This document shows positions 1-18,767 of a DNA stretch of 22,150 nucleotides, in pieces. The translations under genes were made by a program, and so were the position numbers. The DNA comes from a virus (Duplodnaviria; Heunggongvirae; Uroviricota; Caudoviricetes). The stretch lies in the IMG/VR virus record IMGVR_UViG_2617270955_000009. One strand, 5' to 3'. Positions within the stretch are counted from its first letter, which is position 1, and each line of letters opens with the position of its first letter. The notes beneath the pieces are model-generated. The model searched no databases and was not told where the DNA came from. It saw only the letters and a list, made by a program, of their open reading frames with translations.

Positions 1-219
1 TCACATCCACATAATTTGCTGCCCTGACGGCAACGGGTGCGGCCTTACGGCGTGGACTTCTCCCGGCTTCACGATGTATCTCTGTACCGACTCATAGGTG
101 ATGAACGTGGCGCTGCAATTCACGTTCTGACACTGGTGATAACGCTCTTTTGTCGTGTCAGTGATATAGCGGCTTGTACGCGCATGTGCGGCATGCTGGC
201 ATAAAGGACAATGAAACAT
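1..219 (-). CDS. ogr: Ogr late-gene transcriptional activator (zinc-finger, 72 aa)
   Basis: ORF 1..294 (-) contains MFHCPLCQHAAHARTSRYITDTTKERYHQCQNVNCSATFITYESVQRYIVKPGEVHAVRPHPLPSGQQIMWM, recognised as P2 Ogr with a Cys4 zinc-binding arrangement (CPLC ... CQNVNC). Start placed at the internal Met that gives the 72-aa P2-length product; stop codon is at window positions 1-3. Confidence 0.88.
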   Translation of the reverse strand: MFHCPLCQHAAHARTSRYITDTTKERYHQCQNVNCSATFITYESVQRYIVKPGEVHAVRPHPLPSGQQIMWM

Positions 220-300
220 CGCGAGCACCTCTTCCGGTTTTGTTGATAGTGCCATTTTAGTTAATTTATCCTTATAAAACAAACAGATAAACAAAATACA

Positions 301-1464
301 TCACTCATAATCTTCTGTTTCGTACTCCACATCAGAAAGCCTGACCTCAAGCTCTAAGGACGTCGTGAAGCCGCTATTATTCAGAAAATGTGTCACCTTA
401 GTGATTGTCCAGTCCTGCTCGTCTATGACGCGCTTAAAGCCTGACACTCTGACCGGTGTTTCCGTGTAAATATCTGCACGACCGGTAGCCAGGATGATGG
501 AGAACTCCGCAACGCCCCGTTGCAGTTTATCCCACTTCGCCTGAGCGGCACGCATAGCCTGCGCTTTTGTGGCATATACCGTGGTCAGGGCAAAAACGTT
601 GTCAGCTTCACCTGCCATGTATTCACCTTCGCGCGCTTCCGGTGCTTTTGGCGCTTTCTTCTGCGTGACCGGTTTCGCTTTCGGGTGCTCCAGTGCGCGC
701 AGGTGTTTCTCTTTCTTTTTGCGTTTCAGTTTTACCTTCTGCTTTTGTGGCTTCGGGTCTTTGGTGTGAAGCCACTTTGCCGTTACGCCGGTATAGGCTC
801 CACGGTCAGCAATCGCAAAATGATGACGGTCACCGTCGCTGCGGGTGATGGTAATCTGCGGGATTTTTTTACCGCTGGCCGTCACCCCCTGCCCCGCTTT
901 GAGAAACAACAGTTTTCCCATTTTTACCGACACCTCACCGCCGTTGCGTTCTGCAAGACGGGTCAGAAATTTCGCATCAGACTCCTGCGACTGGTCGATG
1001 TGCGGGATTTTAATTCCGGCCAGTGACGGAGCGACACTGGCTTCCAGCCTGTTACGGGAGGCTATCGCCTCAACAATCGCACCGAGCGTGGTGTCATGCC
1101 ATGAGCCTTCCCGGCGGGAATTGAGCGTCCCGCGAAAATCTGCACTCCGGGCACGGATGGTGACCACATCCGGCGCGCCCCGGTGTTCAACCTCATCAAC
1201 GGTAAATTTCCCTTTGCATACCAGGGCAAAACCTTTCCAGCCGATATACACCGTCAGGACAGCGCCACGAACCGGCAGCCCGACCTGCCCGTCGGCATCG
1301 TTCAGTTCAATATCAAGCTGGTCAGCCTCAAAGCCCCGGTTATCCGTCAGGGTCATGCTCATCAGACGGTCGCTGATATTGCCGGTAATATCCCTGCTGT
1401 CGAGCATCAGCATGTAATCCGGCGTCAGCGTACTGCCTGCATCAAATGTCAGCGTATCCAGCAT
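301..1464 (-). CDS. D: Tail protein D (late control gene D), 387 aa
   Basis: 387-aa ORF with lysine-rich central linker (KPQKQKVKLKRKKKEK); length and position between U and ogr match P2 gpD. Confidence 0.9.
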   Translation of the reverse strand: MLDTLTFDAGSTLTPDYMLMLDSRDITGNISDRLMSMTLTDNRGFEADQLDIELNDADGQVGLPVRGAVLTVYIGWKGFALVCKGKFTVDEVEHRGAPDVVTIRARSADFRGTLNSRREGSWHDTTLGAIVEAIASRNRLEASVAPSLAGIKIPHIDQSQESDAKFLTRLAERNGGEVSVKMGKLLFLKAGQGVTASGKKIPQITITRSDGDRHHFAIADRGAYTGVTAKWLHTKDPKPQKQKVKLKRKKKEKHLRALEHPKAKPVTQKKAPKAPEAREGEYMAGEADNVFALTTVYATKAQAMRAAQAKWDKLQRGVAEFSIILATGRADIYTETPVRVSGFKRVIDEQDWTITKVTHFLNNSGFTTSLELEVRLSDVEYETEDYE

Positions 1465-1943
1465 TATCCCGCCCCCGTCATACCCGTGAATTTAGTTGCC
1501 ATACTGCCCGCCTTACCGATGAGCGATTCCGCCTGTTTACCGATATCGCCATAAAGCGCGGCCAGTGATTCATCAACGCGGGTAAGTGACAGCGTAAAAT
1601 CAATTTTCCGGGGTGTGCCGTCGGCAAAGAAAATACTCCCTGTTTCACTCACCTTGCTGATGACATACATACCGTAAATCATGCCGGTGCCATCCAGCAA
1701 CGGCCACGCCCGGCCTTCCTCTGCCATCAGTCTGAGCGTGGTCATCGTCAGCTTGCCGCCGGTCAGTTCGGGATAAAGCACACCGGCAAGCGTCATGTTT
1801 TCCTCACCCACACCTAGAAACTGGTAGGCATCCCGTTTACCGATACGGGAATTTGACGGCCAGCGATAATCTGATTCACGCTGCATGGTCTGGTGTGGCA
1901 GCGTCTGGCGCATAAAAACAAACATCCCTAACGCGAGCATCAT
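1464..1943 (-). CDS. U: Tail protein U, 159 aa
   Basis: 159-aa ORF immediately downstream of T and overlapping the D start by 1 nt; size and synteny match P2 gpU. Confidence 0.85.
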   Translation of the reverse strand: MMLALGMFVFMRQTLPHQTMQRESDYRWPSNSRIGKRDAYQFLGVGEENMTLAGVLYPELTGGKLTMTTLRLMAEEGRAWPLLDGTGMIYGMYVISKVSETGSIFFADGTPRKIDFTLSLTRVDESLAALYGDIGKQAESLIGKAGSMATKFTGMTGAG

Positions 1944-1957
1944 TTTTCATCACCTCC

Positions 1958-4405
1958 TTAACCGTCATGCATCATGCTGGCACGGGCGCGCGCACGTTTA
2001 TCCCGCTCGTATTTTTCGAGCGCATCCTGTAACTGGCGGTCAAGCTGTGTCCCCGGCGCAGTACCACCCGTCAGGCTGATGTGATATTCGTTTTTACTCT
2101 GGTCCACATAAGAGCGGCCAGCCGGTGCCGTAACCGGCTGATAAGCCTGATAACCTGCATAAGAGCTGGTCGCCGGAATATAACCACCGGTGCCATACGT
2201 GGCGGCATGAGTTCTGGCGGCTGTCTGGTCAAGTGTGTCTGACTCTTTGTTGATGAACCCGAGCTTTTCCAGTACCCAGTCAATGCCGCTGCGTAATTTG
2301 TTGAACGCATTAAGCGGCAGCATCAGCGCGTCAGCCAGTGCCTGCCCGAACATGACGCCCGTGTCACGGCAACGGTTCAGGGTGTCCTGGGTGGCTTTGA
2401 CCGGGGCAATCAGGTTTTTAAACCACTGCCACGCAGCCTGTAACTTTTCACCCAGCCAGTCAAACACCGGCTTAAGTGGCGTGAACAGTTCTCCCACCGG
2501 CGCAAATGCCGCTTTCAGCCCTTCCACCACACCGCCAAAGAATGCGCTGACAGGCTCCCAGTATTTACGGATAAGTAACGCTCCGGCGACAATGGCGGCC
2601 ACCACGGCCACTACCGGCCAGCTAATCGCCCCGATGGCCGTCATAACGGCACTGCCAACCGTCGTGAAAATTGCCCCCATTGCGCCTGCTGCAGCAATGA
2701 TGGCATTGATGCCGGTGATAACCGGCCAGGCTACAAGACCAATGGCACCGATGATGCCAGTAAGCGCCAGTGCGCCACCGGCAATGAGGCCGATGGTTGA
2801 CGCCAGTGATTTGTTTTTCTGGATCCAGCCGTCGAGTTTTAACACATACTTTGTGGCCGTCTGCGTGAGCTTACGCAGTGCGCCTTCCTGCTGGTCAAAC
2901 AGGTCAGTCCCCACCGCCTCATAAGCGGACTGAAACTCTTTAAAGTCACCGCCGAGGTTGTCCTGCATGATATTTACCAGCTCGGCGGTCTTCCCGTCTG
3001 AGGCTTTAAACGCAGCGGTCAGTTTGTCCAGCTTTCCGGTTGAGGCGGCAGTCATCAGCACGGCGGCGGCTGAGCTGGCCTCCTCCCCGAAAATGGTTTT
3101 CATGTATTCAGCCTGCTGGGCAGTACCGAGCCGGTTTTTCTCAAAACTGGCCTGCATTTCTTTCAGAATGGTAAATATTGGCCGGGTGTTTCCCTTGCTG
3201 TCTGAGGTTTTCACTCCAAGCTCTTTGAGTGCATCCCATGCTTTTCCCGTCGGTGCCTGCAGGCGGCTTAACACGGCACGGCTTCCCGTCCCCGCCATTG
3301 AGCCTGTGATTTTTGCATCATGCAGCGCCCCGACCATTGCGGCGGTTTCTTCAATGCTGACACCGGCATTTTTTGCCACAGGTGCGGCATAGGTCAGCGC
3401 ATCGCTCATGCCGTCAAAATCGGCGGCGGTTTTGTTCATCGTCATGGAGAGAACATCCCCGATATGAGCGACCTTATCGTTTGAAAGCTGAAAGGCGGAT
3501 TTCATCCCCATCAGCAGGGCGGCGTTTTCTTCCATCGTGCGGCGGTTCGCCAGCGCCATATTCAGCGTGACCGGCGTTGCCGCCTGAATGGCATCAACAT
3601 CCCCACCCGCTTTCGCGATGATTATCTGTGCACCGGCCGCATCATCCGCCGAGGCGGCGGTATTGTCGCCGAGCTGGCGCGCCTGTTTGCGTAGTGCGGT
3701 CATTTCGGCGGAGTCTTTTGCCACTCCGAGCACGGCCTGCAATTCTGAGTTTTTCTGCGCAAACTCATAACCGGGCATCAGCAACTTAACTCCGGCCATC
3801 GTTCCCGCCGCCGCAATCCCCACACCGGCAGCGCCCACTGAGGCCATATTTCCGGCCAGTTCCTTTCCGGCCTGATAACGCTGTTTTACTGCATTAAGTT
3901 TTGCCTGTTGCGCACTGACACGCGCCAGCGCGTCACGCTGCCGGTTAAGCTGTGCGGTGGTTTCACTGATACGGTTTTTCAGTCCCTGCTCATCATGTGC
4001 AAGATTGCGGGTATTAATTCCCACAGCGGCCAGTTCCCGCTGCTGGCGCTTAACGGAATCCGTCAGGCGGTTATATTTCGCCTGTAAGTCCTCCGCCGCA
4101 CGCTTTGCGGATTCCAGCACTTTCGCCTGAGCACGGGTCGGACGTTCAGTGTTTTTAAACTGTGTGGCAAGTGCTTCGGCTTCCTGCCGTGCCTTTTCAA
4201 GTGCATGACCAGTCACGGCAAGCTGTGCGCTGGTCTTGCGAAATCCCTCAATACGGGATGCGTGACCGTTCAGCTCGCGCAGTGATTTTTGTGTTTCCCG
4301 GATATCCCCCGACAGCGACTTACTCGCTGTGCGGATGGATTTAAACGGGCGGGATGCCTGGTCAACAGCCCTGAGCAATACCTGTAATTTTACATTGTTA
4401 CTCAT
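1958..4405 (-). CDS. T: Tail tape measure protein T, 815 aa
   Basis: 815-aa ORF; coiled-coil-rich N-terminal third, Ala/Gly-rich hydrophobic middle segment, position after E/E'; matches P2 gpT length exactly. Confidence 0.92.
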   Translation of the reverse strand: MSNNVKLQVLLRAVDQASRPFKSIRTASKSLSGDIRETQKSLRELNGHASRIEGFRKTSAQLAVTGHALEKARQEAEALATQFKNTERPTRAQAKVLESAKRAAEDLQAKYNRLTDSVKRQQRELAAVGINTRNLAHDEQGLKNRISETTAQLNRQRDALARVSAQQAKLNAVKQRYQAGKELAGNMASVGAAGVGIAAAGTMAGVKLLMPGYEFAQKNSELQAVLGVAKDSAEMTALRKQARQLGDNTAASADDAAGAQIIIAKAGGDVDAIQAATPVTLNMALANRRTMEENAALLMGMKSAFQLSNDKVAHIGDVLSMTMNKTAADFDGMSDALTYAAPVAKNAGVSIEETAAMVGALHDAKITGSMAGTGSRAVLSRLQAPTGKAWDALKELGVKTSDSKGNTRPIFTILKEMQASFEKNRLGTAQQAEYMKTIFGEEASSAAAVLMTAASTGKLDKLTAAFKASDGKTAELVNIMQDNLGGDFKEFQSAYEAVGTDLFDQQEGALRKLTQTATKYVLKLDGWIQKNKSLASTIGLIAGGALALTGIIGAIGLVAWPVITGINAIIAAAGAMGAIFTTVGSAVMTAIGAISWPVVAVVAAIVAGALLIRKYWEPVSAFFGGVVEGLKAAFAPVGELFTPLKPVFDWLGEKLQAAWQWFKNLIAPVKATQDTLNRCRDTGVMFGQALADALMLPLNAFNKLRSGIDWVLEKLGFINKESDTLDQTAARTHAATYGTGGYIPATSSYAGYQAYQPVTAPAGRSYVDQSKNEYHISLTGGTAPGTQLDRQLQDALEKYERDKRARARASMMHDG

Positions 4406-4825
4406 TCGTGTTTCCGCTTCGCCGGAGCGCCTTTTCGCGCCATGTGATGAGTTCGGTCAGGCTCATGGGATACAGTTCTGATGGCGGCCAGTGAAATATC
4501 ACTGCCACATCCGCCATCAGGTCATCGACCGAGAGATTTTTCGGAAACGTTACTGCACCGAGTTCGGCGACAAAAAACCGACCACCTTACCGGCCAGCGC
4601 CACAAGGTCAGGCAGCTCCAGCGCGGCGACCTCCTGCTCAGTCAGCATCGGTGCCGTCATGCGCGGCAGCACTTTAATCAGTGCATCGACTTCGGAGTTT
4701 GCGACCGCAGCCAGACTGACACCGCGCAGCGTCCCGGCATTGGGTTTCATCAGCGTGACCTGTTCGATAACCTGCTCACCACGCTTGACCGGATTGTCCA
4801 GGGTAATCACATTTTCTTTGTTCAT
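4398..4825 (-). CDS. E+E': E+E' fusion made by programmed -1 frameshift (predicted 142 aa)
   Basis: On the minus strand the E frame reads GGT TTT TTG TCG. A -1 slip on T_TTT_TTG continues as VAELGAVTFPKNLSVDDLMADVAVIFHWPPSELYPMSLTELITWREKALRRSGNTNE and stops at TAA (4398-4400), overlapping the T start (ATGAGTAA). 85 aa of E plus 57 aa gives 142 aa, the known P2 E+E' size. Confidence 0.75.
4550..4825 (-). CDS. E: Tail assembly chaperone E, 91 aa
   Basis: 91-aa ORF MNKENVITLDNPVKRGEQV...GKVVGFLSPNSVQ; size and position (between FII and T) match P2 gpE. Confidence 0.88.
   Translation of the reverse strand: MNKENVITLDNPVKRGEQVIEQVTLMKPNAGTLRGVSLAAVANSEVDALIKVLPRMTAPMLTEQEVAALELPDLVALAGKVVGFLSPNSVQ
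4571..4577 (-). other. -1 ribosomal frameshift slippery heptamer T_TTT_TTG (minus strand)
   Basis: Plus-strand CAAAAAA at 4571-4577 is TTTTTTG on the coding strand, six codons before the E stop; this is the canonical P2 E/E' shift site. Confidence 0.75.
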
Positions 4826-4881
4826 GGTTTTCTCACTTCTGAATCAGGGTTAACCGGTCAGCCAGGCTGACCGGATGAAAA

Positions 4882-5400
4882 TCACAGGCCGATATTGCGG
4901 CGGTGTTGCTCCAGCCGGTCGACGCCGTTCACCTTCTCAATCATGTTGATGGTGTCAATTTCGACCAGCTCCTTACCGTCCATCGTCAGCCGGAAATAGG
5001 TGCAGACCACGGAGATTTTCGACTCGGTGTCTTCTCCCTGTTTACCCTCGCCGGTGTCGATTTCTTTCTGACGGCCACGCATGACCACTTCGACGGCCAC
5101 CGTTTCGCCGGTATCGTCACGCTGGTAAGAGCCTGCAAAACGAATCGGCACGGCATCCACACCGGTTGCGGCGTAAAGTTCCCAGATAACCGAATCCGGG
5201 AAGCCCCCGAGCGACCACTCCATTGACAGCGCATCGTCATCAAGGCCGAGGTCTACCGGTGCGCTGCCGTTCATCCCCGCACCGCGATAGTTTTCGAGCT
5301 TACGGGTCAGTTTTGGCAGCGTGACGGACTTCGCGACGCCCTGATAGCTGTAGCCGTTCAGAAAGACGTTCATTAACTTGAGTTTGCGCGGCATTGCCAT
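4882..5400 (-). CDS. FII: Tail tube protein FII, 172 aa
   Basis: 172-aa ORF directly downstream of FI; length and synteny match P2 gpFII. Confidence 0.9.
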   Translation of the reverse strand: MAMPRKLKLMNVFLNGYSYQGVAKSVTLPKLTRKLENYRGAGMNGSAPVDLGLDDDALSMEWSLGGFPDSVIWELYAATGVDAVPIRFAGSYQRDDTGETVAVEVVMRGRQKEIDTGEGKQGEDTESKISVVCTYFRLTMDGKELVEIDTINMIEKVNGVDRLEQHRRNIGL

Positions 5401-5412
5401 CGGTCAGACTCC

Positions 5413-6603
5413 TTAATTGCTGTTAACCGAGGTGACCAGATTTGCCAGGTATTTATCGGTAATACGCTGGCGCAGGGTCAGGTTTTCAAGAGGAGGCACC
5501 GGGGTATAGTCGTAGTCGATATACAGTTTTCCGGCCTTGAGGGTTTCCGCATCGTTGGATTCTTCGCTGAACCAGCAGGTCGCATCCACGATATAGCCGT
5601 TTGTTTTCAGCTCACGGAATTTGGCATTGATACCGTCAACGATGTCGCGAATCAGCGTTGCGGTGATGGGCTTGTCCACCGCCCACATGTGCGCCTCAGC
5701 CATCGTGTCGGCCAGCACCTGCGCGGTGCGGGTGTAGTTTTCAAAGAGGAACAGCGGGTCATCAGAGCAGGTACGGTTACCCCAGAAGCGGAAACCGTCG
5801 CGGCGAATCAGCGTAGTGACGCCTGACTCGTTAAGCAGGTCAGCATCAGTGCCGGACTCCTGCAAATCCCAGAATACAGATGCGCTGATGCCGGTAACAC
5901 CGTTTACCCCGACGTTGGACAGCGTTTTATGCCAGCCCTGCTCCTGGTCGATTTTAGCGCGCAGACCCAGCGCACGGGCGGTGGCATACGCGGTGGCGGT
6001 GGTGCTGGTGACCGTATCCCATGCGAGGAAATCCGGCCAGATGACCATCAGCTCACGCTGGCTGAAATTCTGGCGGTAGGCTTTCACCTCGGAAATGGTT
6101 TTACAGCCCCATGCGCTGATATACCCGAAAGCGCGCAGCTTCTGACAGACAGATGCCAGTGCAACAGCCACCTCTTTGGTGTCCAGTCCCGGTACGCCGA
6201 GAATACGCGGTTTAACACCGGTTACCGACTCCGCCGCCAGCAGGGCTTTCAGTCCGGTGTACTGACCGTTTTCGTCGGTGGTGCCGATGATATTGGAAAC
6301 GGTCTGCGCAAGTTTCGTTTCTTCGTCGTCGCCGGTGCCGTCTTCAACACGCACGACAACGGTGACCGGTTTTGACTGGTCAGCGATGGCCTGCAACGAC
6401 GCCGCCAGCGTGCCTTTTTTACCAGCCTTTGCAATTGCGCTCTGCACATTGGTAATCAGCACCGGTTTATTGAGGGGGAAGGTTTCCGCATCCGCATCGC
6501 TGGCCGTGCAGACCATGCCGACAATGGCAGTGGATACGGTGGAAATGACGCGGGTGCCGTCGTTAATCTCCAGCACCTGCACGCCGTGATGATAGTCACT
6601 CAT
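5413..6603 (-). CDS. FI: Contractile tail sheath protein FI, 396 aa
   Basis: 396-aa ORF; length and synteny match P2 gpFI. GGAG Shine-Dalgarno sits about 10 nt upstream of the ATG on the minus strand. Confidence 0.92.
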   Translation of the reverse strand: MSDYHHGVQVLEINDGTRVISTVSTAIVGMVCTASDADAETFPLNKPVLITNVQSAIAKAGKKGTLAASLQAIADQSKPVTVVVRVEDGTGDDEETKLAQTVSNIIGTTDENGQYTGLKALLAAESVTGVKPRILGVPGLDTKEVAVALASVCQKLRAFGYISAWGCKTISEVKAYRQNFSQRELMVIWPDFLAWDTVTSTTATAYATARALGLRAKIDQEQGWHKTLSNVGVNGVTGISASVFWDLQESGTDADLLNESGVTTLIRRDGFRFWGNRTCSDDPLFLFENYTRTAQVLADTMAEAHMWAVDKPITATLIRDIVDGINAKFRELKTNGYIVDATCWFSEESNDAETLKAGKLYIDYDYTPVPPLENLTLRQRITDKYLANLVTSVNSN

Positions 6604-6704
6604 CCGTTTAACTCCGTGGTTAATGGGTGCAACTATTTTCTGTTGTGCGAAGCATGAGACGCTATTTGACCTGGCTGGTCAGTGAATGAAACAACAGATA
6701 AAGA
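6604..6704 (-). promoter_or_regulatory. Expected late promoter region for the FI-FII-E-T-U-D operon (P_F equivalent); exact elements not resolved
   Basis: About 100 bp between a terminator hairpin and the FI start. Contains a TGACC-N5-GGTCA dyad (6667-6681) and a TGTTGT...ACAACA pair, but I could not find an exact TGT-N12-ACA Ogr-site consensus. Confidence 0.3.
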
Positions 6705-6729
6705 AAAGACGGGCAATCAGCCCGTCTTT
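6705..6729 (-). terminator. Rho-independent terminator hairpin (minus-strand oriented)
   Basis: AAAGACGGG-caatcag-CCCGTCTTT, a 9-bp stem with 7-nt loop, followed on the minus strand by the T-rich tract TCTTTATCTGTTGTTTC. Confidence 0.6.
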
Positions 6730-6777
6730 AAATCACAAATTTTGACAGTTTTTGATTTGCATTCGAGAATAACAGTT

Positions 6778-6800
6778 CGGGGGAGAAAAAACCTCCCCCG
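6778..6800 (-). terminator. GC-rich hairpin immediately 3' of the cargo operon (probable terminator)
   Basis: C-GGGGGAG-aaaaaac-CTCCCCC-G, an 8-bp G/C stem 15 nt after the TAA stop at 6815-6817; the downstream minus-strand tract (GAACTGTTATTCTC) is only moderately U-rich. Confidence 0.45.
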
Positions 6801-6814
6801 CCCACGTAACTTGC

Positions 6815-7864
6815 TTAACTACATGAATCAATGATGTTTTTCACAAGCTTATTTATTTCAGATTCATTAGTGCCAAATTCACCCGCTTTAAAATTAATAC
6901 CTCGCGCTGCAAGATTTCTTTTTATTTTACTTACTTCACTCAGCATAAAGTCATAATTTAACGTTTTTTCTTTAATGCCCTTTGAATATATTACAGGGAA
7001 GGCTTTCATTAATGCCGCATATCCTGTGAGTTTACTTAAATAATATTCCCTTGGTGTATTCCACTCAACTGGATAGACATTGCTAATAGCATTAAAATAA
7101 TTCAATATTATTTTTTGAATTACAGCGTCATTCTCTTCGATAAAATAATCGCGGAATATACACTGATTATTTGGCGTTAATGGCAGATTCATTTTTAACA
7201 TTCTTGCATCATCATCAGGTTTTTTTGAAATATGTTGGATAAGATATTTAATGAAAGTGCTTTGTGATAATGATGCATTATCTTGGTTTATTTCCTTTTT
7301 CCCAAGCATTTTTAGCTTTTTATAAAAAGGGGAATCAGGATTACTGTTTATTCCTCTCGCGATTTCGTGGCATGTTTTTTGTGGACTCCTGCGTTCTGCA
7401 AGCGAAAATAAATCATATACAATTGATGGATTTACACGAGTTTGTTTACTATTAATAATTGAGAAAACATAGGCTTTTTCTTCATCAGTAAGATCAAACA
7501 TTAAAACAACAGGTAGTTCAAAAAGTTTAGCATTAGAGGAATTTTTAATTCCCCATAATCTGTGTTGACCATCGATAACATCACCTATAACCACTTCAGA
7601 CTCAAAGTAAAAATAGGTATCATCCATTTTTAAATTGGATGAATCATCGACGGAAATTATGATCGGCGTTGGAAAAGTCGCATCCGGCTCACTAGTGTAC
7701 TTTGCGATTTCTGAAACTCTTGATGATGAAATATCCCTTTGCACACCAAATTCGAAATCTCTGCGACGATCAACTCTAACTATATCGAGCAAGTCAATGG
7801 CTCTTATTGATGTTAAATAGAAAGTACCGATTGGTTGATTAACTTCAATATATTTCAACTTCAT
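6815..7864 (-). CDS. DGQHR-domain protein (DndB-like, ParB/sulfiredoxin-fold), 349 aa; accessory cargo gene B
   Basis: Exact DGQHR motif at residues 98-102 (nt 7559-7573, VIDGQHRLWG), preceded by the family-typical N-terminal QPIGTFYLTSIRAIDLL element. AT-rich codon usage. GGAG Shine-Dalgarno 8-11 nt upstream. Start ATG overlaps the stop of the upstream membrane gene (ATGA at 7861-7864). Confidence 0.8.
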   Translation of the reverse strand: MKLKYIEVNQPIGTFYLTSIRAIDLLDIVRVDRRRDFEFGVQRDISSSRVSEIAKYTSEPDATFPTPIIISVDDSSNLKMDDTYFYFESEVVIGDVIDGQHRLWGIKNSSNAKLFELPVVLMFDLTDEEKAYVFSIINSKQTRVNPSIVYDLFSLAERRSPQKTCHEIARGINSNPDSPFYKKLKMLGKKEINQDNASLSQSTFIKYLIQHISKKPDDDARMLKMNLPLTPNNQCIFRDYFIEENDAVIQKIILNYFNAISNVYPVEWNTPREYYLSKLTGYAALMKAFPVIYSKGIKEKTLNYDFMLSEVSKIKRNLAARGINFKAGEFGTNESEINKLVKNIIDSCS

Positions 7865-8460
7865 ATCATAACTCCTTTACCATCATCAGTTACTTCATTG
7901 GTTGCCATTGTCTGATCTATAACTATTGCATCTTCTTTTTCTATATAACTTTCATCATTTATATCTGTATGTGCAGTAGCGTTAAGTTTTAATACGCCAA
8001 ATGTATAGCATACTAAGACTATAGAAATAACATAAATTATAGGTTGAGTTAAACCGAATGTTAAATCATTAGAATTTGGTAGGATTAAATCCTTTGATTG
8101 CGTAGCAGCGTATATTATACCTGATAATTGTAATAAAATAATCAATAATATTATTGATATGATTTTTATTGTTTTAAATTCAAGTTTTGAACTAAAAAAA
8201 GTTACAAACATAGGCCCAAGGGCAGAGGCTATTAATGCAATGGAAAATGTGTAAAAACTTCCTGACGAACCTTCTATGTAAATAGATTGATCTAGTGGTA
8301 TTGAATGTGAATAATATCTTATGATTATATTTGCAATAATCCCCATTTGCCCACAAACAACTGTAAAAACGATCCAAATAAAAAACTCTCTTTTGTTTTT
8401 TCTTATCGCATCGAATGGATAGGAAAGGGATTTCTTTAATATTTGCCAGTCTTTACTCAT
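7861..8460 (-). CDS. Small integral membrane protein, four predicted TM helices, acidic C-terminal tail (199 aa from ATG; 202 aa if the GTG at 8467-8469 is used); accessory cargo gene A
   Basis: Hydrophobic segments FFIWIVFTVVCGQMGIIANIII, FYTFSIALIASALGPMFVTFF, IKIISIILLIILLQLSGIIYAA and TQPIIYVISIVLVCYTFGVL; C-terminal DINDESYIEKEDAIVIDQTMATNEVTDDGKG. The ORF-track start at 8469 is a GTG; the first ATG is at 8458-8460 with AAGAG upstream. Confidence 0.7.
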   Translation of the reverse strand: MSKDWQILKKSLSYPFDAIRKNKREFFIWIVFTVVCGQMGIIANIIIRYYSHSIPLDQSIYIEGSSGSFYTFSIALIASALGPMFVTFFSSKLEFKTIKIISIILLIILLQLSGIIYAATQSKDLILPNSNDLTFGLTQPIIYVISIVLVCYTFGVLKLNATAHTDINDESYIEKEDAIVIDQTMATNEVTDDGKGVMI

Positions 8461-8646
8461 GTTATGCACTCTTTATTTAAACTTATCAACAATATGTAAC
8501 TATCAATTAATAACCGTTTACTCTTTTCAAATAATAAAATTATAATCATCAAAAAAATCGACATTATAATTAGACAACATTTTTAACACTAAGTGATACC
8601 TGACTCATGTCTCCAGACCCTAAAACCGCTTGCATAATTTAGAATG

Positions 8647-8675
8647 ATAATACTACCTTATAGTAGGCTTGTGAA
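8647..8675 (-). promoter_or_regulatory. Candidate sigma70-type promoter for the cargo operon (TTCACA-17 bp-TATTAT)
   Basis: Read from the minus strand of the AT-rich intergenic region; reasonable -35/-10 spacing but one of several possible matches in AT-rich DNA, with a long (about 180 nt) leader. Confidence 0.2.
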
Positions 8676-8864
8676 CTTATATAGCCTGAGTCAAGTAATT
8701 AATAAATCACTTATTTCGTTTTTTTTGCATTTGGTCGCTGTGATTTTTTCATAAACAAACTTACAATGATGTCAGCAATGTCTGCTCTTGGCACAGAGCG
8801 GACTGTCAGATTAGTTTTTACTCTGTGCCATAGATGTATAAACTCACATCAGAGCTTATACAAT

Positions 8865-9443
8865 TTATTGTGGCATTTCAGGCCATTCTATATCCGGAGC
8901 ATCTTCCGGCTGAATGCGATTCAGTAGCACACGGTATTTTTTCCAGTGTGTCAGGCTTAACTTTTCTTCCTCAGTTGCCATATCCAAATCGACAGCATCC
9001 TGCAGCGTGGCAATGATTTCACCTGCATATGCAATCTGCTCTTTCTTCTGAGACTCAGCCGCTCTGACAAGTGCATCACGCTCTGCATTCTCATCATTCA
9101 CCCACGCATTTCCGTTCCATTTCTGATAATCCCCCTCCGGGGAAATGGCTGTCACGTCTGGAGATAATGCGCCAAGTTCAGAAATATAAATGGCTGCTCC
9201 CGTTTTCGTTTCGTATACGGTCTTTCCGCGATGGTCTTCCATCAACTCCCATTTCATTTCATCTGCATTGAAAACGGCTGCATAACCAGCCGGTATATCA
9301 GGCGGCGCAATATCTGTACTGTTTGCAGGCAAACCTGTATACGGAGGAATATATGCATCACTTTCGCCAATAAATTCATTGGTTCCATCAAGTAAATTGA
9401 AAACGCGGATAGTTTGTGCTTCTGCACTCATTCTGAAAGCCAT
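8865..9443 (-). CDS. G: Tail fibre assembly protein (Tfa / gpG-like chaperone), 192 aa
   Basis: 192-aa ORF immediately 3' of tail fibre H with a Tfa-typical conserved C-terminus ([29 protein letters not shown]). Confidence 0.85.
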
Positions 9444-12061
9444 TATGCAAGCCTCACAATATAGTTAAATGCGATGTTTTTGACGGTGTTTTCGGTATTA
9501 CCTGTAGCATTAACGGTAATAGAGTGCCCGTGTGAGCCAATAGCAACCGTGTGTGAATGTGCACCAATACCAACCGTATGATTATGTGCGCCAATATCTA
9601 CCGTGTGGGCATGATTCCCGGCAGCTCCTGATGTGCCATTAAACGATGGGTTGTCAAAGCCTGTTTTACCGGTTTCACCATTAGTATTGGCATTCCCTCT
9701 GTAAATGGTATGTGTATGGTTACCAGTGGTATTAGTGGTTTTTGTTCCGTAGTTAAACGTACTGACTGTCTTCGTCCCGTAATCAAATGAACTGGTCGTT
9801 TTCGTCCCTAAATCCGTATTTGACGCACTGGCACTGTGAGTATGCGATTTAATCCCGTCCTGTTCCTGTGACAATACGGCACGCCCACTGGCGGGTTTGC
9901 CCTTGATTGTCCAGCCGCGCATATCTGGAATAACACCAGAAGGATAGACAATAGCCAGTTTCGGATATGCAGCCTTATCAAACGTCTGCCCCTGCATAAT
10001 TGCATAGCCTGCAGGTGGTGTATCTGATGGCCACGGCAGCGGAACACCAGGCGGAAACGCTTCAATATCTTTCGTCCCGTCAAAGGTTACGCCGTTAATT
10101 GTCCTTGCCGTTTTCAGCTTTGTTGCTGTAGCAGCATTGCCGGACAGTTCGCCTGAAAGACCGGCGCTGAAGGTTTGTTTCGCCGCCCATGTCTGGGCTT
10201 CGTCAATAATTGGCACACGTCTTGTGGTGATCGTGCGACTTCCCGGATTTCCTGAAATACGCACCATAAAAAAGCGGTAGTTCGCTTTACTTACAGTGCT
10301 GCGCCATACATGCATTGAGCGCCCCGCACCGGAATCATCACTCGGACCAACTGAGATGTTTATCAGGTTGCCATCAATGACGCCCCAGTCCATACCTTCG
10401 GGAATGTTGGTCATGTTATCAAGCCGAACGGTTATCAGACTGCCCGGCACAAAGTCGTAGGTCTGCCAGTCCAGGCTGGAGAGTTTTGCCACTGCACCGC
10501 CGATACCCAGATTCAGGGGAAGTGAATACGAGGTGTAGACTTCACGCCATTCGCTCCACGAGCTGCCGGTATAGACGCGCTCAAACGTGCGACCTTTAAG
10601 GGTTGCACCTGTTCCGGCAGTTGTATAACGCTGCCATACGTTAACACCATCAAAGCGCCTCAACACTTCCAGAATCCCGAGGACTGTCACGCCGTTTCCG
10701 TCCAGTATTGGACCGTTGGTCGCTTTACCTGTAACGCTGTAAATACCTGGTGAAGTCACCTCATTCAAATCCCCGTCGTAATAACGACTCTCTGACTGAT
10801 GACCGACTCTTAACCACGGTTCCCACTGTGGATTTGATGCATCCCAGCTTGCCGCAAGGCAGCGGACATACATATTTCCACGGCGAGTGGTATAACGTTG
10901 CGTTCTTCCATAATTCCCGCCTTCGAGGATCTCAAGCATCCCCTGAGCAAAGCCGCCTTCCTCTGGATAATTGCGTTCATATGAAGCTATAGCCGAGCTA
11001 CTGTTACGCCATAAACCAAGATGCTCGGCGGCTCCAAGCGTATTCAGGTCTATAGTCGTACTCAAAGGGCGGGTAGCAGATTGAGTGTGACGCCATACGC
11101 CCCACGGACCATCAGTGCCATTCCACTTATTGGCGAGTTTACGCATGTAAACATTGCCGTCTCTCGTGGTAAAGCGTTGCGTACCTGCAAAATTGCCGGC
11201 AGCAAAAACCTCAAGCACACCGACAGCATTATCTTCCGGGAAATTTTTCTCCAGTGTTGAGTTAGTTGAGGTAGCTTTAGACCAGATCCCCAGATAAGCC
11301 TTAACGGGACCAAATGTATTCAGGTCGGCATCAACCGGCATTTCGCCATTGTTTTTCATAAACGTCAGACTGGTAACGCCAACATTGTCCAGAAAAGCTG
11401 ATTTATCCTGGATATCTGCACCATTCTGATTTTTCGCCAGACGTGAATTTGCGTTGTCATTTGCTGCCTTGACCGCTTTTGGCGTTGCCGCCAATGACTC
11501 ACTGGTGCTGTTTGTTGCACTGCTTAACTGAGTAAAACCTTTTTCTGTCAGCGTGGCGTCAGGATGGCGGCGGGACTGCTCATGTTCTGCGATTTTGTCA
11601 TCGACGTAATCCTGCGTCGCCATCACTGTGCTGGCATCAATACTCAGCTCAACGGACGCCACGTTACTGACAATAATAACCATGCGGCAGGTCTGCGCAC
11701 GCCCGGAGCCTTCAGCGAGTTCAGGCTTATAGCTTTCTGCCATGTTGGCGACCGCAATCAGTGTTCCGGCATCGTCATACAGACCAAGCTCACGCATCCA
11801 GAAGCCGCCCACTTCGGGCGGTACAACCAGTTCAGCCACGATATAGTTTTTATTCTTATTATCCACGCTGACTTTATTCAGAGCGTGACGCCAGACCTCA
11901 TGCACCAGTTTCGTCTGACCGGCATCCGGCACCGGCAATTTGCCATTACCGTCACCCACGGCCATTGCAGACAGGTTTACTTTTTTCCCGCCGGGGACAG
12001 TGGCGGCTGCCAGCTTCGCGGCTCCGGCAGTAGTGATAACGGTTTTAAATTTCGTGCTCAT
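9443..12061 (-). CDS. H: Tail fibre protein H, 872 aa (longer than the 669 aa of P2)
   Basis: N-terminus ([21 protein letters not shown]...) is P2 gpH-like; the central part has three ~70-aa internal repeats; the C-terminus has His-x-His repeats ([36 protein letters not shown]). Confidence 0.88.
9515..9630. repeat. Tandem ~27-bp repeats within the 3' end of H, encoding the histidine-rich (HxH) repeat
   Basis: Plus-strand units resembling caaccgtgtgtgaatgtgcaccaatac / caaccgtatgattatgtgcgccaatat / ctaccgtgtgggcatgattcccggc; the period of 27 nt equals the 9-aa protein repeat. Confidence 0.6.
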
Positions 12062-12071
12062 TGTTTCTCAC

Positions 12072-12602
12072 TTATCCGGGATAAACAGTAATAACATCAC
12101 CATCACAGACCACACCGCCTGTATACAGATAGCCGGGAATGTCCTGGATAATGTTCAGGCCGATAAGGTGGCGACTTGCGGGTTTGGCATCGGCAATCAG
12201 CCGTTCCATTTCCAGATACATTTCCTCTGTGATACCGCTTTCCAGCACACCGATATCAAGACGAAAGGTTCCGGCCGGGTCGTTTGTCTCCCACCATTCC
12301 TTTACGTTAATGAGATAGCCGAGCGGCTCCACCACACGCCGGATTGCGCCGACAGTGCCTTTATGACAGTGGATGAAATAGGCATCGCGGATAACGGCGC
12401 GTTTTGTCGCTTCCGGCCACTTTTCATCCCACCTGTCGACCGAAAACGCCCACGCCAGCCACGGCAGCAGATTTGCCGGGCAGGTGTCCGGGTTCCACAG
12501 CTCACGAATACTGACCGGCGTTTTTTCAATTTCCGCACAGGCTTTTGCGGCGGCGACCTCAAGCGGTGATGAGCCGGTCGGCAGCAGGCGCGAATCACTC
12601 AT
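12072..12602 (-). CDS. I: Baseplate/tail protein I, 176 aa
   Basis: 176-aa ORF between J and H; length and synteny match P2 gpI. Confidence 0.85.
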   Translation of the reverse strand: MSDSRLLPTGSSPLEVAAAKACAEIEKTPVSIRELWNPDTCPANLLPWLAWAFSVDRWDEKWPEATKRAVIRDAYFIHCHKGTVGAIRRVVEPLGYLINVKEWWETNDPAGTFRLDIGVLESGITEEMYLEMERLIADAKPASRHLIGLNIIQDIPGYLYTGGVVCDGDVITVYPG

Positions 12603-13503
12603 CCGAGCCTCCGGTCACGACGCGGTATTCGGTACAGAAAGACGCCTGCGTATTGTTGAGCACGATGTCGGCCAGCGGTGCAGCCAGTTCGACACGCTGC
12701 ACGCCTTCCACATGCAAAGCGGCATAAATGGCAGACAGACGGATGTCGCGCCCCAGCCGGTGCTGTGCCGTGATGTACGCTTCCAGCTTTTTCACGGCGG
12801 CGGCGCGGATGGGTTCGCTTTCGGGACCAGGGTAAAGGTAAAGCGTGGCGTTTATCTGGTATTCAACGATGGCGGCAGACTGCACGGTCACGCGGTCGGC
12901 CACCGGCCTGACGTCCTCGCCATTAAGGGCGTTACGCACCACCGCCAGCAGGTCTTCGGATGCGACACCGTTATTTTCACGTGACAGCACAGAGATGGTG
13001 ACGCAGGCCGGAGAAGGACTGGTGACAGAGATATCCGCGACACGCCCGTCGGCACTTCGACCATGATACTGATAGGCCCCCACCGACCCGGCGACGCTTA
13101 AACCTTCAAACGCCTGCTGAATACGCAGACGATAATCGGTGTCAGATTCCATCACGGCCGGTGTCGGCGGGATAGTCGAATCATCTGCCGGGGTGATAAT
13201 CAGGCGCGTGGTGTTGTAATTGGCACCAATCACATCAAGGTCATTACCGGCAGCACAGGCCAGCATTACCGCCCGTGCGGCCTCATTCACACGCTGACGC
13301 CAGATAAGCTCACGATAAGCATTTTCCTCCAGCAGTTTGACGAGAGGCTCAGATTCCAGCGTCAGGGTACGGGCGACCGCCTCCTGCTGGTCTTCCGGGT
13401 AAAGGGAAATCAGTGTCGCCTTGCGTTCGGCAAGAATGGTTTCAAAGTCCAGCTCCTCGACCACATCCGGTGCGGGTAGCTGGTTCAGGTCGATAATCGG
13501 CAT
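12595..13503 (-). CDS. J: Baseplate assembly protein J, 302 aa
   Basis: 302-aa ORF; length and synteny match P2 gpJ; overlaps the I start by 8 nt. Confidence 0.88.
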   Translation of the reverse strand: MPIIDLNQLPAPDVVEELDFETILAERKATLISLYPEDQQEAVARTLTLESEPLVKLLEENAYRELIWRQRVNEAARAVMLACAAGNDLDVIGANYNTTRLIITPADDSTIPPTPAVMESDTDYRLRIQQAFEGLSVAGSVGAYQYHGRSADGRVADISVTSPSPACVTISVLSRENNGVASEDLLAVVRNALNGEDVRPVADRVTVQSAAIVEYQINATLYLYPGPESEPIRAAAVKKLEAYITAQHRLGRDIRLSAIYAALHVEGVQRVELAAPLADIVLNNTQASFCTEYRVVTGGSDE

Positions 13504-13507
13504 GGTT

Positions 13508-13855
13508 TCAACTCACAGGGATGGTTAACGAAAGTGGCTGGCCGGTGTCGTTGTGCTGGCCGGTTAACGTGACCGTCATTCGCCCGTCAAAACTGCGCTC
13601 AGTGGTGACGGATGACAGGGTGACGCGGGGTTCCCATTTCAGCACCGCCATGTAACAGGCGACCTTAATCTGCAACTCAAGCGCCGGGGTCTGCGGCTGG
13701 TCAATCATTGATGCCAGCAACGAGCCGTAATCACGACGCATCACCCGTGAGCCGACCGGTGTGCGCAGGATATCGCCGATACTCTGGCTGATATGCTCAA
13801 GGTCAGTGACCGTCAGGCCATCACTGCGATTCATTCCGAGATAACGCGCAGTCAT
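13508..13855 (-). CDS. W: Baseplate protein W, 115 aa
   Basis: 115-aa ORF between V and J; matches P2 gpW size; ATGA overlap with V. Confidence 0.85.
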   Translation of the reverse strand: MTARYLGMNRSDGLTVTDLEHISQSIGDILRTPVGSRVMRRDYGSLLASMIDQPQTPALELQIKVACYMAVLKWEPRVTLSSVTTERSFDGRMTVTLTGQHNDTGQPLSLTIPVS

Positions 13856-14487
13856 AGAGGTCCCCCTGTTGTGCCGCCACTGTCGCCGGGGTGTTTATGG
13901 GTATGCAGTACCTTACCGTTTGATGAGAGTTCACCGCCGGTGTGTTCAATGTTGCCGCGCATCGTCCCGCCCTTCTGTACTTCCAGCGTGCCGGTAATCA
14001 GCCTGTTGGTGCAGACCACCTCCGGCGTGTCCAGGGTGACACGGGTTGACGCTTTCACCGTGACCACCGGTACCGTGGCAGTAACAGAATCAGAAGCCGT
14101 CACGCTGGCCGTTTTAATTCCGCTTACCGTGAGTGCACTGGTTTCGGGTTCATACTCAATCACCGCCCCGTCAGAGAAACGGATATGCAGGGCATCAGCC
14201 GACGCAGACGGCGCAGGGTTATCGCCGGAATAAATCCCCGGCAGAACGAACGCCGTGTCGAGTTCACCGCCCACGGCCAGAATCAGCACCTGTTCCCCCA
14301 CGGAAGGTGCCCACCATGTGCGCGAACGACCGGCGCGCTGGGTCAGCCACTGCAGCCAGTCGGTGCACATGCCGCCGGTCTGCACACGGCAGCGACCGGC
14401 GTTAAGGTCGGTTTCGACGACAAGGCCGGTGCGGATCATGTTGCGCAGTGCGCGCGCGAGTTCCTGAATATTTGCGAGAGTGTTCAT
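13852..14487 (-). CDS. V: Baseplate spike/hub protein V, 211 aa
   Basis: 211-aa ORF; length and synteny match P2 gpV. Confidence 0.88.
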   Translation of the reverse strand: MNTLANIQELARALRNMIRTGLVVETDLNAGRCRVQTGGMCTDWLQWLTQRAGRSRTWWAPSVGEQVLILAVGGELDTAFVLPGIYSGDNPAPSASADALHIRFSDGAVIEYEPETSALTVSGIKTASVTASDSVTATVPVVTVKASTRVTLDTPEVVCTNRLITGTLEVQKGGTMRGNIEHTGGELSSNGKVLHTHKHPGDSGGTTGGPL

Positions 14488-14553
14488 AACGGGAAGGATG
14501 CCGCCGGGTCATACCGGCGGCAATGTGACGATGAGGTGTCGGGAATGGCACAA
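14488..14553 (-). promoter_or_regulatory. Expected Ogr-dependent late promoter for the V-W-J-I-H-G operon (P_V equivalent)
   Basis: 66-bp S-V intergenic gap. Minus strand reads TTGTGCCATTCCCGACACC ... TATGAC about 25 nt before the V ATG. A TGT...ACA dyad is present but with 10 nt rather than 12 nt spacing, so the assignment is tentative. Confidence 0.3.
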
Positions 14554-15006
14554 CTAACGGTCGAGGTGCGCCAGGATAATCTCTTCAATCATCTGCACAT
14601 CCTCACCGGTAAAGCCGAGCAGAGGACGCGCCGGATAATCAATTTTCTTACCGTCTTTCCGGGTTTCTTCCGACAGACCGAACTGATGCACACTGGCGAT
14701 TTTCGGCGACTTCCCGCCGTAAAATTCCATTGATGCCTGCTCCGGGCTGGCGCGGATATGCAAAAAACGACTGGTGATAAGTTTCGCAAACATTTTTCGC
14801 TTAACGCGACCGGTCTTTTTTCTGGCGCTCTGCTGCTGGCGTGGCGCATAGGGTGTGCCGTCCGGGGCTTTCTGTGTCATCACCCGACGCTGCTGACTCT
14901 GCCGCAGGCGTTTCGCCAGTTCGGCACTCAGTCGCCGACGCCCTGACGGTGACAGCGACTCAATAAGTCCGGTCAGCCGGTCTTCAAAACGCTTAAACTC
15001 ATTCAT
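14554..15006 (-). CDS. S: Tail completion protein S, 150 aa
   Basis: 150-aa ORF; length and synteny match P2 gpS; overlaps the R stop by 8 nt. Confidence 0.85.
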   Translation of the reverse strand: MNEFKRFEDRLTGLIESLSPSGRRRLSAELAKRLRQSQQRRVMTQKAPDGTPYAPRQQQSARKKTGRVKRKMFAKLITSRFLHIRASPEQASMEFYGGKSPKIASVHQFGLSEETRKDGKKIDYPARPLLGFTGEDVQMIEEIILAHLDR

Positions 15007-15466
15007 CCCACTTGCTCACCAGTTCGCCATTGATATACAGCTCCATCGGGCGGGTAACCGGCTCCGGCGGCGGAGGTTCCGGGATATTCTTCACATGCAG
15101 CGCGCCGTCCACCTCACTGACCAGCGTGCGCTCGGTCAGCATCAGGCTGATGCTGATATCAAAGCTGCTGTCATTGTTGATGTCTGCATAAAACGTGAAG
15201 CCCTTTTTCTGGCCTGCGTCGGTGGTCATGATGTCGGGCTGATTTTCCCGCAGCCACGCCAGCACCGGCACGATGAGCAGGTCAAAATCACCGGTAAAGT
15301 CGGTCACAATGACATTGAGCGTGTAACGCTTTTCGAATGACAACGACGCCGCCAGTGTGGAGGCAATACTCCCGTTATCCACGAATATCCGCAGCATCTC
15401 GGGACTGGTTTTCAGCACCGTGACGGCATCAGTCAGCGCCCTGCGCAGGCTGTCGGGTTTGAGCAT
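14999..15466 (-). CDS. R: Tail completion protein R, 155 aa
   Basis: 155-aa ORF; length and synteny match P2 gpR. Confidence 0.85.
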   Translation of the reverse strand: MLKPDSLRRALTDAVTVLKTSPEMLRIFVDNGSIASTLAASLSFEKRYTLNVIVTDFTGDFDLLIVPVLAWLRENQPDIMTTDAGQKKGFTFYADINNDSSFDISISLMLTERTLVSEVDGALHVKNIPEPPPPEPVTRPMELYINGELVSKWDE

Positions 15467-15719
15467 CGTTTTCGTCCTGACAGTGTTTAATCATTTTTAC
15501 CTGGCTGGCACAGCGTGCCAGCGCGTTCTCAAGCTGCCGGATATCGGCACTTAAATCACCGTTCGTCTCCGGGTCACTGCCCGGCATCGGGCAAAGGCTC
15601 ACTTTCGGGCAGGCGTTGTGGACAATCACTGGCGTCGGTGCAGGCCGGGCGCTGGTGCAACCGGCGCACAGCATCAGGCAGGCCAGCGCCGTACCAGCGG
15701 CGAAAATCTTCGTTTTCAT
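15429..15719 (-). CDS. lysC: LysC, outer-membrane lipoprotein spanin (Rz1-like, o-spanin), 96 aa
   Basis: Signal peptide with lipobox (LMLCAGC), Pro-rich mature region; lies out of frame across the 3' end of lysB and extends into the 5' end of R, the classic overlapped-spanin arrangement. Confidence 0.8.
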   Translation of the reverse strand: MKTKIFAAGTALACLMLCAGCTSARPAPTPVIVHNACPKVSLCPMPGSDPETNGDLSADIRQLENALARCASQVKMIKHCQDENDAQTRQPAQGAD

Positions 15720-16412: not shown

Positions 16413-16426
16413 GGTGTTTACTCCGT

Positions 16427-17205: not shown

Positions 17206-17208
17206 GCG

Positions 17209-17921: not shown

Positions 17922-18020
17922 GACTACCTCAGAAAAGTCGGGCGGTGGACGCCGGTGCAGTGTCAGGTGATTCACCCTCACTGACCGGCGTGCCGCCCTG
18001 GCGCGGGGCGCATTCGGTTG

Positions 18021-18764: not shown

Positions 18765-18767
18765 CGG

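Follow-up and report, generated by a model that had tools for sequence, protein, structure and literature searches.

The stretch of DNA analysed in this work (hereafter the window) is the 22,150-nucleotide IMG/VR virus record IMGVR_UViG_2617270955_000009, an Escherichia coli P2-like prophage whose late genes are encoded on the minus strand. Between the equivalents of the P2 tail-fibre assembly gene G and the tail sheath gene FI, the slot that holds fun(Z) in P2, it carries a pair of overlapping genes, A and B, which encode a small protein with four transmembrane (TM) segments and a protein with a DGQHR domain. The present analysis concerns the inheritance of this pair, its association with DNA methyltransferases and its possible role in defence. 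The features of the locus are as follows, with lengths given in amino acids (aa), nucleotides (nt) or base pairs (bp).

7861..8460, minus strand: gene A, a 199-aa inner-membrane protein with four TM segments, both termini predicted to face the cytoplasm (N-in/C-in) and an acidic tail of 40 aa on the cytoplasmic side
6815..7864, minus strand: gene B, a 349-aa DGQHR-domain protein with a predicted N-terminal ParB/Srx-fold domain resembling a nucleoside triphosphatase (NTPase) and a helical C-terminal half
7861..7878, minus strand: translational coupling, with an AAAGGAG Shine-Dalgarno sequence within the end of A and an ATGA stop/start overlap at 7861-7864
6729..8799, minus strand: mobile two-gene cassette (leader, A, B and the proximal hairpin), delimited by homology to a Salmonella islet and by base composition
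8461..8799, minus strand: AT-rich 5' leader with a candidate promoter of its own, TTCACA-17-TATTAT, at 8675-8647
6778..6800, minus strand: GC-rich hairpin, a cassette-borne terminator candidate, CGGGGGAG-GTTTTTT-CTCCCCCG, starting 15 nt past the stop codon of B
6705..6729, minus strand: second hairpin with a T-tract at the cassette/backbone junction, AAAGACGGGC-TGATT-GCCCGTCTTT followed by TCTTT
8790..8829, minus strand: inverted repeat (GGCACAGAG...CTCTGTGCC) after gene G, at the left junction of the cassette
8865..9443, minus strand: flanking tail-fibre assembly gene (P2 G equivalent; Pfam Caudo_TAP, E 2e-39; RefSeq agrees)
5413..6603, minus strand: flanking tail sheath gene (P2 FI equivalent; Pfam Phage_sheath_1 and Phage_sheath_1C; RefSeq agrees)

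Comparison with P2, the Pfam matches of the flanking genes and the RefSeq annotation all place the pair at the Z/fun position, where the original prediction had put it. The translational coupling that was also proposed there, through the ATGA overlap, is borne out by direct reading of the sequence, with the AAAGGAG ribosome-binding site located 7 nt upstream of the start of gene B. The open reading frame (ORF) listing gave gene A as 7861..8469, with a GTG start and 202 aa. Since all homologues as well as RefSeq use the ATG at 8460, which yields 199 aa, gene A is better placed at 7861..8460; its description as a four-helix membrane protein of about 200 aa stands, and only the listed start at GTG 8469 has to be given up. 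For an identical prophage, RefSeq annotates A as 'hypothetical protein' (WP_001530525.1, 199 aa) and B as 'DGQHR domain-containing protein' (WP_001530524.1, 349 aa). Hundreds of homologues were found for each of the two genes, indicating that they are not chance ORFs.

Cassette boundaries, leader and hairpins

The fraction of guanine plus cytosine (GC) is 0.26-0.38 over positions 6650-8900, compared to 0.52-0.60 on both flanks; the island that holds the two genes is 28-33% GC. The contrast in composition noted originally is therefore real, although the 30-37% then quoted lies slightly above the measured range. From 8799 to 6729, a segment of 2,072 bp is 97.2% identical to a chromosomal islet of Salmonella (locus L103) that is not a P2 prophage. 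The span of this identity defines a mobile unit of 2.07 kb, made up of an AT-rich leader of 340 bp, the two genes and the first hairpin, with a GC fraction of 0.32 for the cassette vs 0.55 for the backbone. Both cassette ends fall within hairpins. The Salmonella homology starts at 8799, within the 3' arm of the inverted repeat at 8790-8829; at the other end, homology to the P2 pF promoter region restarts left of ~6716, and the 3' half of the hairpin at 6705-6729 is common to P2 upstream of pF. The Salmonella islet adjoins glyQS and contains an integrase remnant and a TacAT toxin-antitoxin (TA) module. Gene A occurs in near-identical form (98%) far more often in Salmonella than in E. coli, where the cargo is present in only 3 of 5,426 complete genomes, each time in the G/FI slot, and the flanking genes are present in 1,439. 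No copy of the cargo was found in any deposited phage genome. These observations support the original view of the pair as a horizontally acquired two-gene cargo operon in the variable G/FI slot of P2.

The cassette was also predicted to have its own terminator hairpin. A GC-rich hairpin is indeed present at 6778-6800, inside the block common to Salmonella, with a 9-bp stem that includes 7 GC pairs; its stem is not followed by a T-tract, so that it can be regarded only as a candidate terminator. The candidate promoter in the leader, with 10/12 consensus matches in a consensus scan, may drive expression of the pair. The leader is kept in the Salmonella copy and is not conserved in Pectobacterium or Franconibacter. 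The idea that the leader might hold a conserved regulatory element or RNA was rejected, given the absence of cross-host conservation and of any Rfam match.

Two variants of the leader should be mentioned. In E. coli MSB1_4E (L102), an IS1 insertion sequence is located in the leader between G and A, at a point equivalent to ~8684-8699, just upstream of the candidate -35 element. Both ORFs are intact in this copy, and the insertion could silence or rewire the expression of the pair. In Franconibacter, the leader (L093, ~8150-8230) contains a sequence resembling the 3' end of a tRNA, GGTTCGAGTCC...CACCA, which suggests that this island may have been inserted at a tRNA gene.

Gene B, its membrane partner and their co-inheritance

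B passes the DGQHR domain model TIGR03187, scoring 161.9 bits over residues 6-290 where the cut-off is 58.85, in agreement with its initial assignment as a 349-aa DGQHR protein. Relatives were collected by a scan with the B alignment, taking one genome per species; it yielded 80 loci at 53-30% identity, and all neighbourhood censuses reported here cover these 80 best loci, with ORFs called mechanically and TM segments predicted by hydropathy only. Across the 80 relatives the motifs D98-G-Q-H-R102, Q42-R43 and F134xxxN138 are 96-100% conserved, as part of a larger set conserved at 86-100% that also includes R159-S-P-x-K-x-x-H166, K185xLG, Q201, D219, D246 and W268. In total, B has about 50 near-invariant, catalytic-looking residues across phyla. 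This motif conservation implies that B is an enzyme or a switch under purifying selection.

The modelled N-terminal domain of B is assigned to the ParB/Srx fold at the superfamily level. In Foldseek, B matches Noc, ParB-CDP and KorB best, with weak E-values of 0.02-0.05, and neither single-sequence nor profile searches of the PDB found a solved homologue. The closest named family is TIGR04172 (DGQHR_dnd_1), which aligns to B over almost the full length with 168.9 bits (E 1.7e-49) and a cut-off of 450 that is not reached. An identity of this family, named 'DGQHR domain protein', with DndI was considered and rejected: DndI is a 656-aa DUF262(DGQQR)+HNH protein (PMC11662687), and it is retained here as a mechanistic analogue only. 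The Pfam DndB model matches residues 9-152 only (profile positions 7-161 of 338), with 42.6 bits against a gathering threshold of 29.1. The DpdB model NF041060 gives 56.2 bits, short of its cut-off of 300, and the PADLOC DpdB model gives E 1.2e-16. No Pfam match to DUF4868, DUF262 or DUF1524 was found in B. It is noted that R159-x6-H166 resembles the Rx4-6H motif of HEPN proteins; no HEPN structure was retrieved with B. HEPN-containing DndB-type proteins were reportedly proposed by Makarova et al. in 2013.

The hydrophobic cores of A lie at residues 28-46, 71-89, 98-116 and 141-159. Family-wide, the N-terminal head is positively charged in 80% of the members, and the tail of ~35 aa has a net negative charge in 70%. 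An exhaustive profile search returned 261 clusters of A-family proteins at 50% identity, with lengths of 54-275 aa. All of them are stand-alone proteins, and no other architecture was found among these clusters.

The 80 loci come from Bacteroidota, Alpha-, Beta- and Gammaproteobacteria, Firmicutes, Spirochaetes, Fibrobacteres, Acidobacteria, Planctomycetes, Chloroflexi, Ignavibacteria, Cloacimonadota and a bacterium of the candidate phyla radiation (CPR). In ~71 of 79 loci, B is directly preceded by an ORF of 170-275 aa on the same strand, which has two or more predicted TM segments and ends at the start of B; the loci that lack it are mostly situated at contig ends. The two genes overlap by 4 nt in 39 related loci and by 1 nt in 7. 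The A profile picks up the TM partner only down to ~42% identity in B; the more distant partners are found to be homologous to A by profile-profile alignment (hhalign probability 97.7%, E 1.7e-12, 161 columns). A evolves faster, with a mean identity of 15% vs 36.5% for B, and the pairwise divergences of the two proteins are correlated, with a Mantel r of 0.70 that is reached by none of 999 permutations. As judged from these sequence comparisons, the pair of TM and DGQHR proteins is an ancient, co-inherited and obligate module of many phyla, and no peculiarity of P2.

Neighbouring genes and the link to DNA modification

In the flanking-gene census, the commonest neighbour of the pair is by far a DNA methyltransferase. 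A neighbour-joining tree, rooted at the midpoint, divides the relatives into two groups. Within the clade of the window copy an adjacent methyltransferase is very rare (2 of 26 loci). Of the 53 loci of its sister clade, 35 show a DNA methyltransferase gene immediately next to the pair, located upstream of the TM gene or directly behind B, and on either strand. The sister-clade enzymes belong mostly to the D12/Dam class, and the N6_N4, MT-A70 and C5 classes are also represented. Such adjacency, which stays constant while the class and orientation of the methyltransferase vary, is classically the mark of a restriction-modification (R-M) pair. In five loci the arrangement is D12 - N6_N4 - DpnII restriction endonuclease - TM - DGQHR, or has the N6_N4 gene downstream. 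The D12 enzymes of the sister clade are homologous to E. coli Dam over their full length, with 28-35% identity, and those of the DpnII cassettes fall in the same range. GATC specificity of the sister-clade D12 enzymes is thus plausible from their homology to Dam.

The methyltransferase-less clade (clade 1) also has ties to DNA modification. DndD/PbeC and DndE are neighbours of the pair in 4 of 21 clade-1 loci, and the Franconibacter copy (L093) adjoins dndCDE, DndA and an Mrr nuclease. No dndC, dndD, dndE or dpd gene was found near the pair in the window, where the ORFs are those of P2 late genes. For dnd and dpd, the original statement that partners are missing is accordingly correct within the window. 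The conclusion drawn from it, that this is no DNA-modification cluster, is misleading at the family level, in view of the sister-clade methyltransferases, the DpnII cassettes and the Dnd/Pbe neighbours.

Close relatives of the pair are also found among defence and mobility genes. In V. parahaemolyticus the pair lies in an AlpA island directly after GajA/GajB (Gabija), and in V. cholerae it forms a superintegron cassette among HigB, CcdAB and TIR cassettes. The Pectobacterium copy is part of an integrase island full of TA modules. A metagenomic mobile element carries the pair together with a giant methyltransferase-helicase, SocA and GmrSD, and cargo of Tn7-like elements (TniQ/TnsD) is a further context. 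A role in defence is plausible from these contexts taken together, namely the P2 hotspot, Gabija, Dnd/Pbe, GmrSD, TA islands and the superintegron.

Some lineages show additional genes or longer proteins at the locus. In a metagenome-assembled genome of Methylococcaceae (L012:4330-9390) and in Idiomarina (L024:4265-9364), the TM gene starts exactly where the gene of a giant protein of ~1,690 aa, with a HerA/DUF87-TrwB-like ATPase region, comes to its end, which suggests that the operon is larger in some lineages. In Franconibacter (L093:10167-12353), the DGQHR gene is followed on the same strand by genes for a 576-aa HATPase_c_3 (MORC/GHKL-like) protein and a 150-aa ORF; HATPase_c_3 recurs in 3 of 21 clade-1 neighbourhoods. 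A subset of the clade-1 DGQHR proteins reaches ~460-536 aa through a C-terminal extension of 110-190 aa (P0138, P0139, P0143, P0152, P0161 and others; L008:8001-9386, L014, L027). Effector domains were looked for in these extensions and rejected, as none was recognisable.

The GATC content of the cargo was examined as a possible clue to Dam dependence and found to be uninformative, with 6 sites in 6716-8864 vs 6.2 expected. GATC is scarce in the P2-like backbone, with 1 site vs 25.3 expected in 1-6715 and 23 vs 51.1 in 8865-22150. Elsewhere in the backbone, an IS21-type transposase of 513 aa (19965-21506, plus strand; rve and Mu-transposase C domains; the size of ISEc12 istA) adjoins the P2 major capsid gene (18768-19784, minus strand). 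The capsid ORF lacks the first ~15 profile positions, with 337 aa compared to 357 aa in strain AREA_502. The shortened capsid ORF beside the transposase indicates that the prophage in the window is probably defective. In AREA_502, an element of this IS family is found elsewhere, in the lysis region. A sub-threshold Rfam match to IS009 (39.4 bits vs a gathering threshold of 117, E 4.7e-07) lies at 8902-9000 on the minus strand, within the tail-fibre assembly gene, and probably reflects the origin of this Rfam family in P2-like prophage sequence.

Proposed function and relation to known systems

Several ParB-fold relatives of B have been characterised. DndB binds DNA under modulation by ATP and is described as an ATP-modulated transcriptional repressor (PMC4507180; PMC10853773), and a DndB-like protein binds both ATP and GTP (bioRxiv 10.1101/2025.10.10.680097). 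In DndI/SspE, modified self DNA stimulates the NTPase of the DUF262 domain, which leads to release of the protein; DNA that lacks the modification is attacked by its fused HNH nickase (PMC11662687). With these proteins as the template, B is proposed to be an NTP-dependent DNA sensor. We tentatively suggest that the pair is an innate-immunity module linked to DNA modification, with B as the sensor and A as a membrane effector or anchor; by analogy this is the reading we favour, although we would stop short of calling it probable. That the pair is some kind of defence or conflict module is, in our estimate, reasonably likely.

In the proposed mechanism, the cytoplasmic B would bind DNA and use NTP binding and hydrolysis to separate tolerated (self) from foreign DNA, in the manner of its ParB-fold relatives DndB, SspE and DndI. 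On recognition of the latter, B could activate A, so that the membrane would lose its integrity or be permeabilised, resulting in abortive infection or growth arrest. Alternatively, A may hold B at the membrane, where incoming DNA appears. As the output of the system, A would take the place of a nuclease. The adjacent adenine methyltransferase of the sister clade would supply the self mark, giving a triad of methyltransferase, TM and DGQHR proteins with an R-M-like layout. The form found in P2, Salmonella and Vibrio would have lost its dedicated methyltransferase, and might either read a mark made by the host or sense some other cue. A more specific version considers the pair as the 'restriction' half of an unrecognised immunity class, in which B reads adenine methylation and signals to the 4-TM protein and the methyltransferase-less form relies on the host Dam (GATC) mark. 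We give this version little weight. To our knowledge, the Enterobacterales, Vibrionales and Aeromonadales hosts are all classically Dam+.

A number of observations weigh against an immunity module of this kind. Neither the cassette of the window nor the flanking sequence contains a methyltransferase gene, and the R-M logic of the sister clade may not transfer to it. A PADLOC scan at E <= 1 returned nothing for A and only the weak DpdB match for B. No nuclease domain is recognisable in B, whose helical C-terminal half gives no HNH match. In A, no recognisable effector fold was found and almost no residue is conserved family-wide, the only one being G67, at 80%. A-B fusions were sought as evidence of interaction and none exists among the 261 TM-family clusters, so that a physical contact between the two proteins is presumed only. 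Finally, several clade-1 copies stand alone among housekeeping genes (in Chryseobacterium, in Acinetobacter beside valS, and in Aeromonas), which is a neutral context.

The pair could also be an addiction or TA-like module, in which A would be a toxin, either holin-like or a depolariser, and B a regulator or antitoxin such as a DNA-binding repressor of the DndB type. Such a module would stabilise mobile elements or methyltransferase genes and involve no phage sensing. It would account for the compact, overlapping two-gene cassette on mobile elements and for the frequent TA neighbours (TacAT and CcdA in Pectobacterium and Salmonella, HigB and CcdAB in the V. cholerae superintegron), and the ATP-modulated repressor activity of DndB (PMC4507180; PMC10853773) is in line with it. 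However, a protein of 349 aa with so many near-invariant residues is unusual for an antitoxin, and tight linkage to four methyltransferase classes in variable arrangement is a signature of self/non-self marking, unlike what a plain TA pair would show. The addiction module also overlaps with the immunity module, since many TA systems are abortive-infection defences. We consider it unlikely.

In another explanation, the pair is an accessory regulator or helper of DNA modification, with B tuning or targeting a modifying enzyme and A localising it, and the methyltransferase-less copies either orphaned remnants or acting on host enzymes. The models here are DndB, a negative regulator of phosphorothioation, and DpdB, an ATPase supporting DpdA. 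Every characterised DGQHR protein works with DNA-modification machinery, and B matches the DndB, DGQHR_dnd_1 and DpdB models, staying below the cut-offs of the latter two. The methyltransferase adjacency in the sister clade would be expected of a helper, and the five loci with a complete DpnII R-M system do not strictly need further restriction. However, Dam-class methyltransferases are self-sufficient, and the obligate 4-TM partner would be left with no role. It is also hard to explain in the absence of an enzyme why the methyltransferase-less form is intact, conserved and repeatedly mobilised with its own leader (at 97% identity in Salmonella, in an integron, as Tn7 cargo and beside Gabija). 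A helper function therefore seems quite unlikely.

Envelope superinfection exclusion of the Sie type, with A blocking DNA injection by other phages and B as an accessory, is brought to mind by the slot of the pair, which in P2 holds fun(Z); Fun(Z) blocks T5 when cloned (annotation, NC_001895). Small prophage membrane proteins often act in this way, and the fast evolution of the TM partner, at 15% vs 36.5% mean identity, is as expected for a phage-contacting protein. Against this, most family members reside outside prophages, in R-M-like loci, integrons and islands, and the enzyme-like B and the methyltransferase linkage would have no explanation, making exclusion at the envelope improbable. 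A Noc-like DNA-membrane tether, in which B is a ParB-fold NTP-dependent clamp recruited by A for segregation, nucleoid organisation or element maintenance, would fit the Foldseek matches as well as the coupling of CTP binding to membrane binding in Noc (bioRxiv 10.1101/2025.10.10.680097), but is most improbable given those weak E-values, the lack of ParA, parS-like repeats or replication genes beside the pair, and its sporadic (3/5,426 E. coli), horizontally moved occurrence in linkage with R-M, Dnd, Gabija and TA genes.

If the pair is indeed an immune module, a widespread unannotated family, with 261 membrane-partner clusters in many phyla, would be added to the defence repertoire. The reading of modification by ParB-fold proteins would extend from phosphorothioate and deazaguanine to ordinary adenine methylation, and the output would be a membrane protein, not a nuclease. 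The triads of methyltransferase, TM and DGQHR genes would offer a clean genetic test bed, and the methyltransferase-less copies of P2 and Salmonella raise the question of whether host Dam methylation can serve as the self mark of a mobile defence cassette. For annotation, the result accounts for one cargo of 'unknown function' in P2 hotspots; a 2026 survey of P2/P4 flags unknown cargoes of the P2 hotspot as likely undiscovered defences (PMC13586616). The pair was originally called uncharacterised, and this remains so: PADLOC-DB v2 has no model for it, and no description was found in full-text searches of the literature, including two P2-hotspot papers as well as integron and Tn7 papers, and excluding the supplements of the 2026 P2/P4 survey.

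We have compared the pair to the known systems that it most resembles. DndB, DGQHR_dnd_1 proteins and DpdB share with B the DGQHR domain, the ParB/Srx fold and, at the family level, the tie to DNA-modification genes. However, B stays far below the DGQHR_dnd_1 and DpdB cut-offs, and the window contains neither dndCDE nor dpdA. These proteins are not known to have a 4-TM partner, whereas that of B is obligate, and the partner enzyme of B, where present, is a DNA methyltransferase in place of the phosphorothioate or deazaguanine machinery of Dnd and Dpd. SspE and DndI combine a ParB-fold (DUF262, DGQQR) NTPase with an HNH nickase and use a phosphorothioate self mark. B is likewise a predicted ParB-fold NTPase found beside modification systems, but it carries DGQHR in place of DGQQR, has no HNH or DUF1524 domain, and is not fused to the putative effector, which is a membrane protein with a gene of its own. 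B belongs to none of these families, DndB, DGQHR_dnd_1, DpdB or SspE/DndI.

Type II R-M systems such as DpnII/Dam (GATC) have R and M genes that abut each other in variable position and orientation, and the sister-clade pair is placed likewise next to a Dam-class methyltransferase; it is sometimes appended to a full DpnM-DpnA-DpnII cassette. In contrast to these systems, A and B have no recognisable restriction endonuclease fold, and a methyltransferase is missing altogether from the cassette of the window. Lambda RexAB and Kiwa (KwaAB) are two-gene systems that pair a small membrane protein of ~4 TM segments with a cytoplasmic nucleic-acid-related protein, a layout similar to that of A and B. 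RexAB is likewise prophage-borne, and RexAB and Kiwa are, like the pair, candidates for abortive or membrane-acting defence. The resemblance to Kiwa that was noted from the start is confined to this layout. The pair does not belong to Kiwa, as there is no PADLOC match to KwaA or KwaB and no DUF4868 in Pfam; B has the DGQHR/ParB fold instead of DUF4868 or RexA, the TM gene comes first, and a link to methyltransferases marks the family. P2 Fun(Z) is, like the pair, a non-essential cargo of the G/FI slot, but it is a single protein of 528 aa encoded antisense to the late genes. The homology to Z/fun that was initially left open is not found, since BLASTP against NP_046777.1 gives E 1.8 for B and 4.5 for A, that is, no similarity. 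Taken together, the pair is probably new within ParB-fold, DNA-modification-linked immunity, set apart by its obligate 4-TM partner and its coupling to ordinary DNA methyltransferases.

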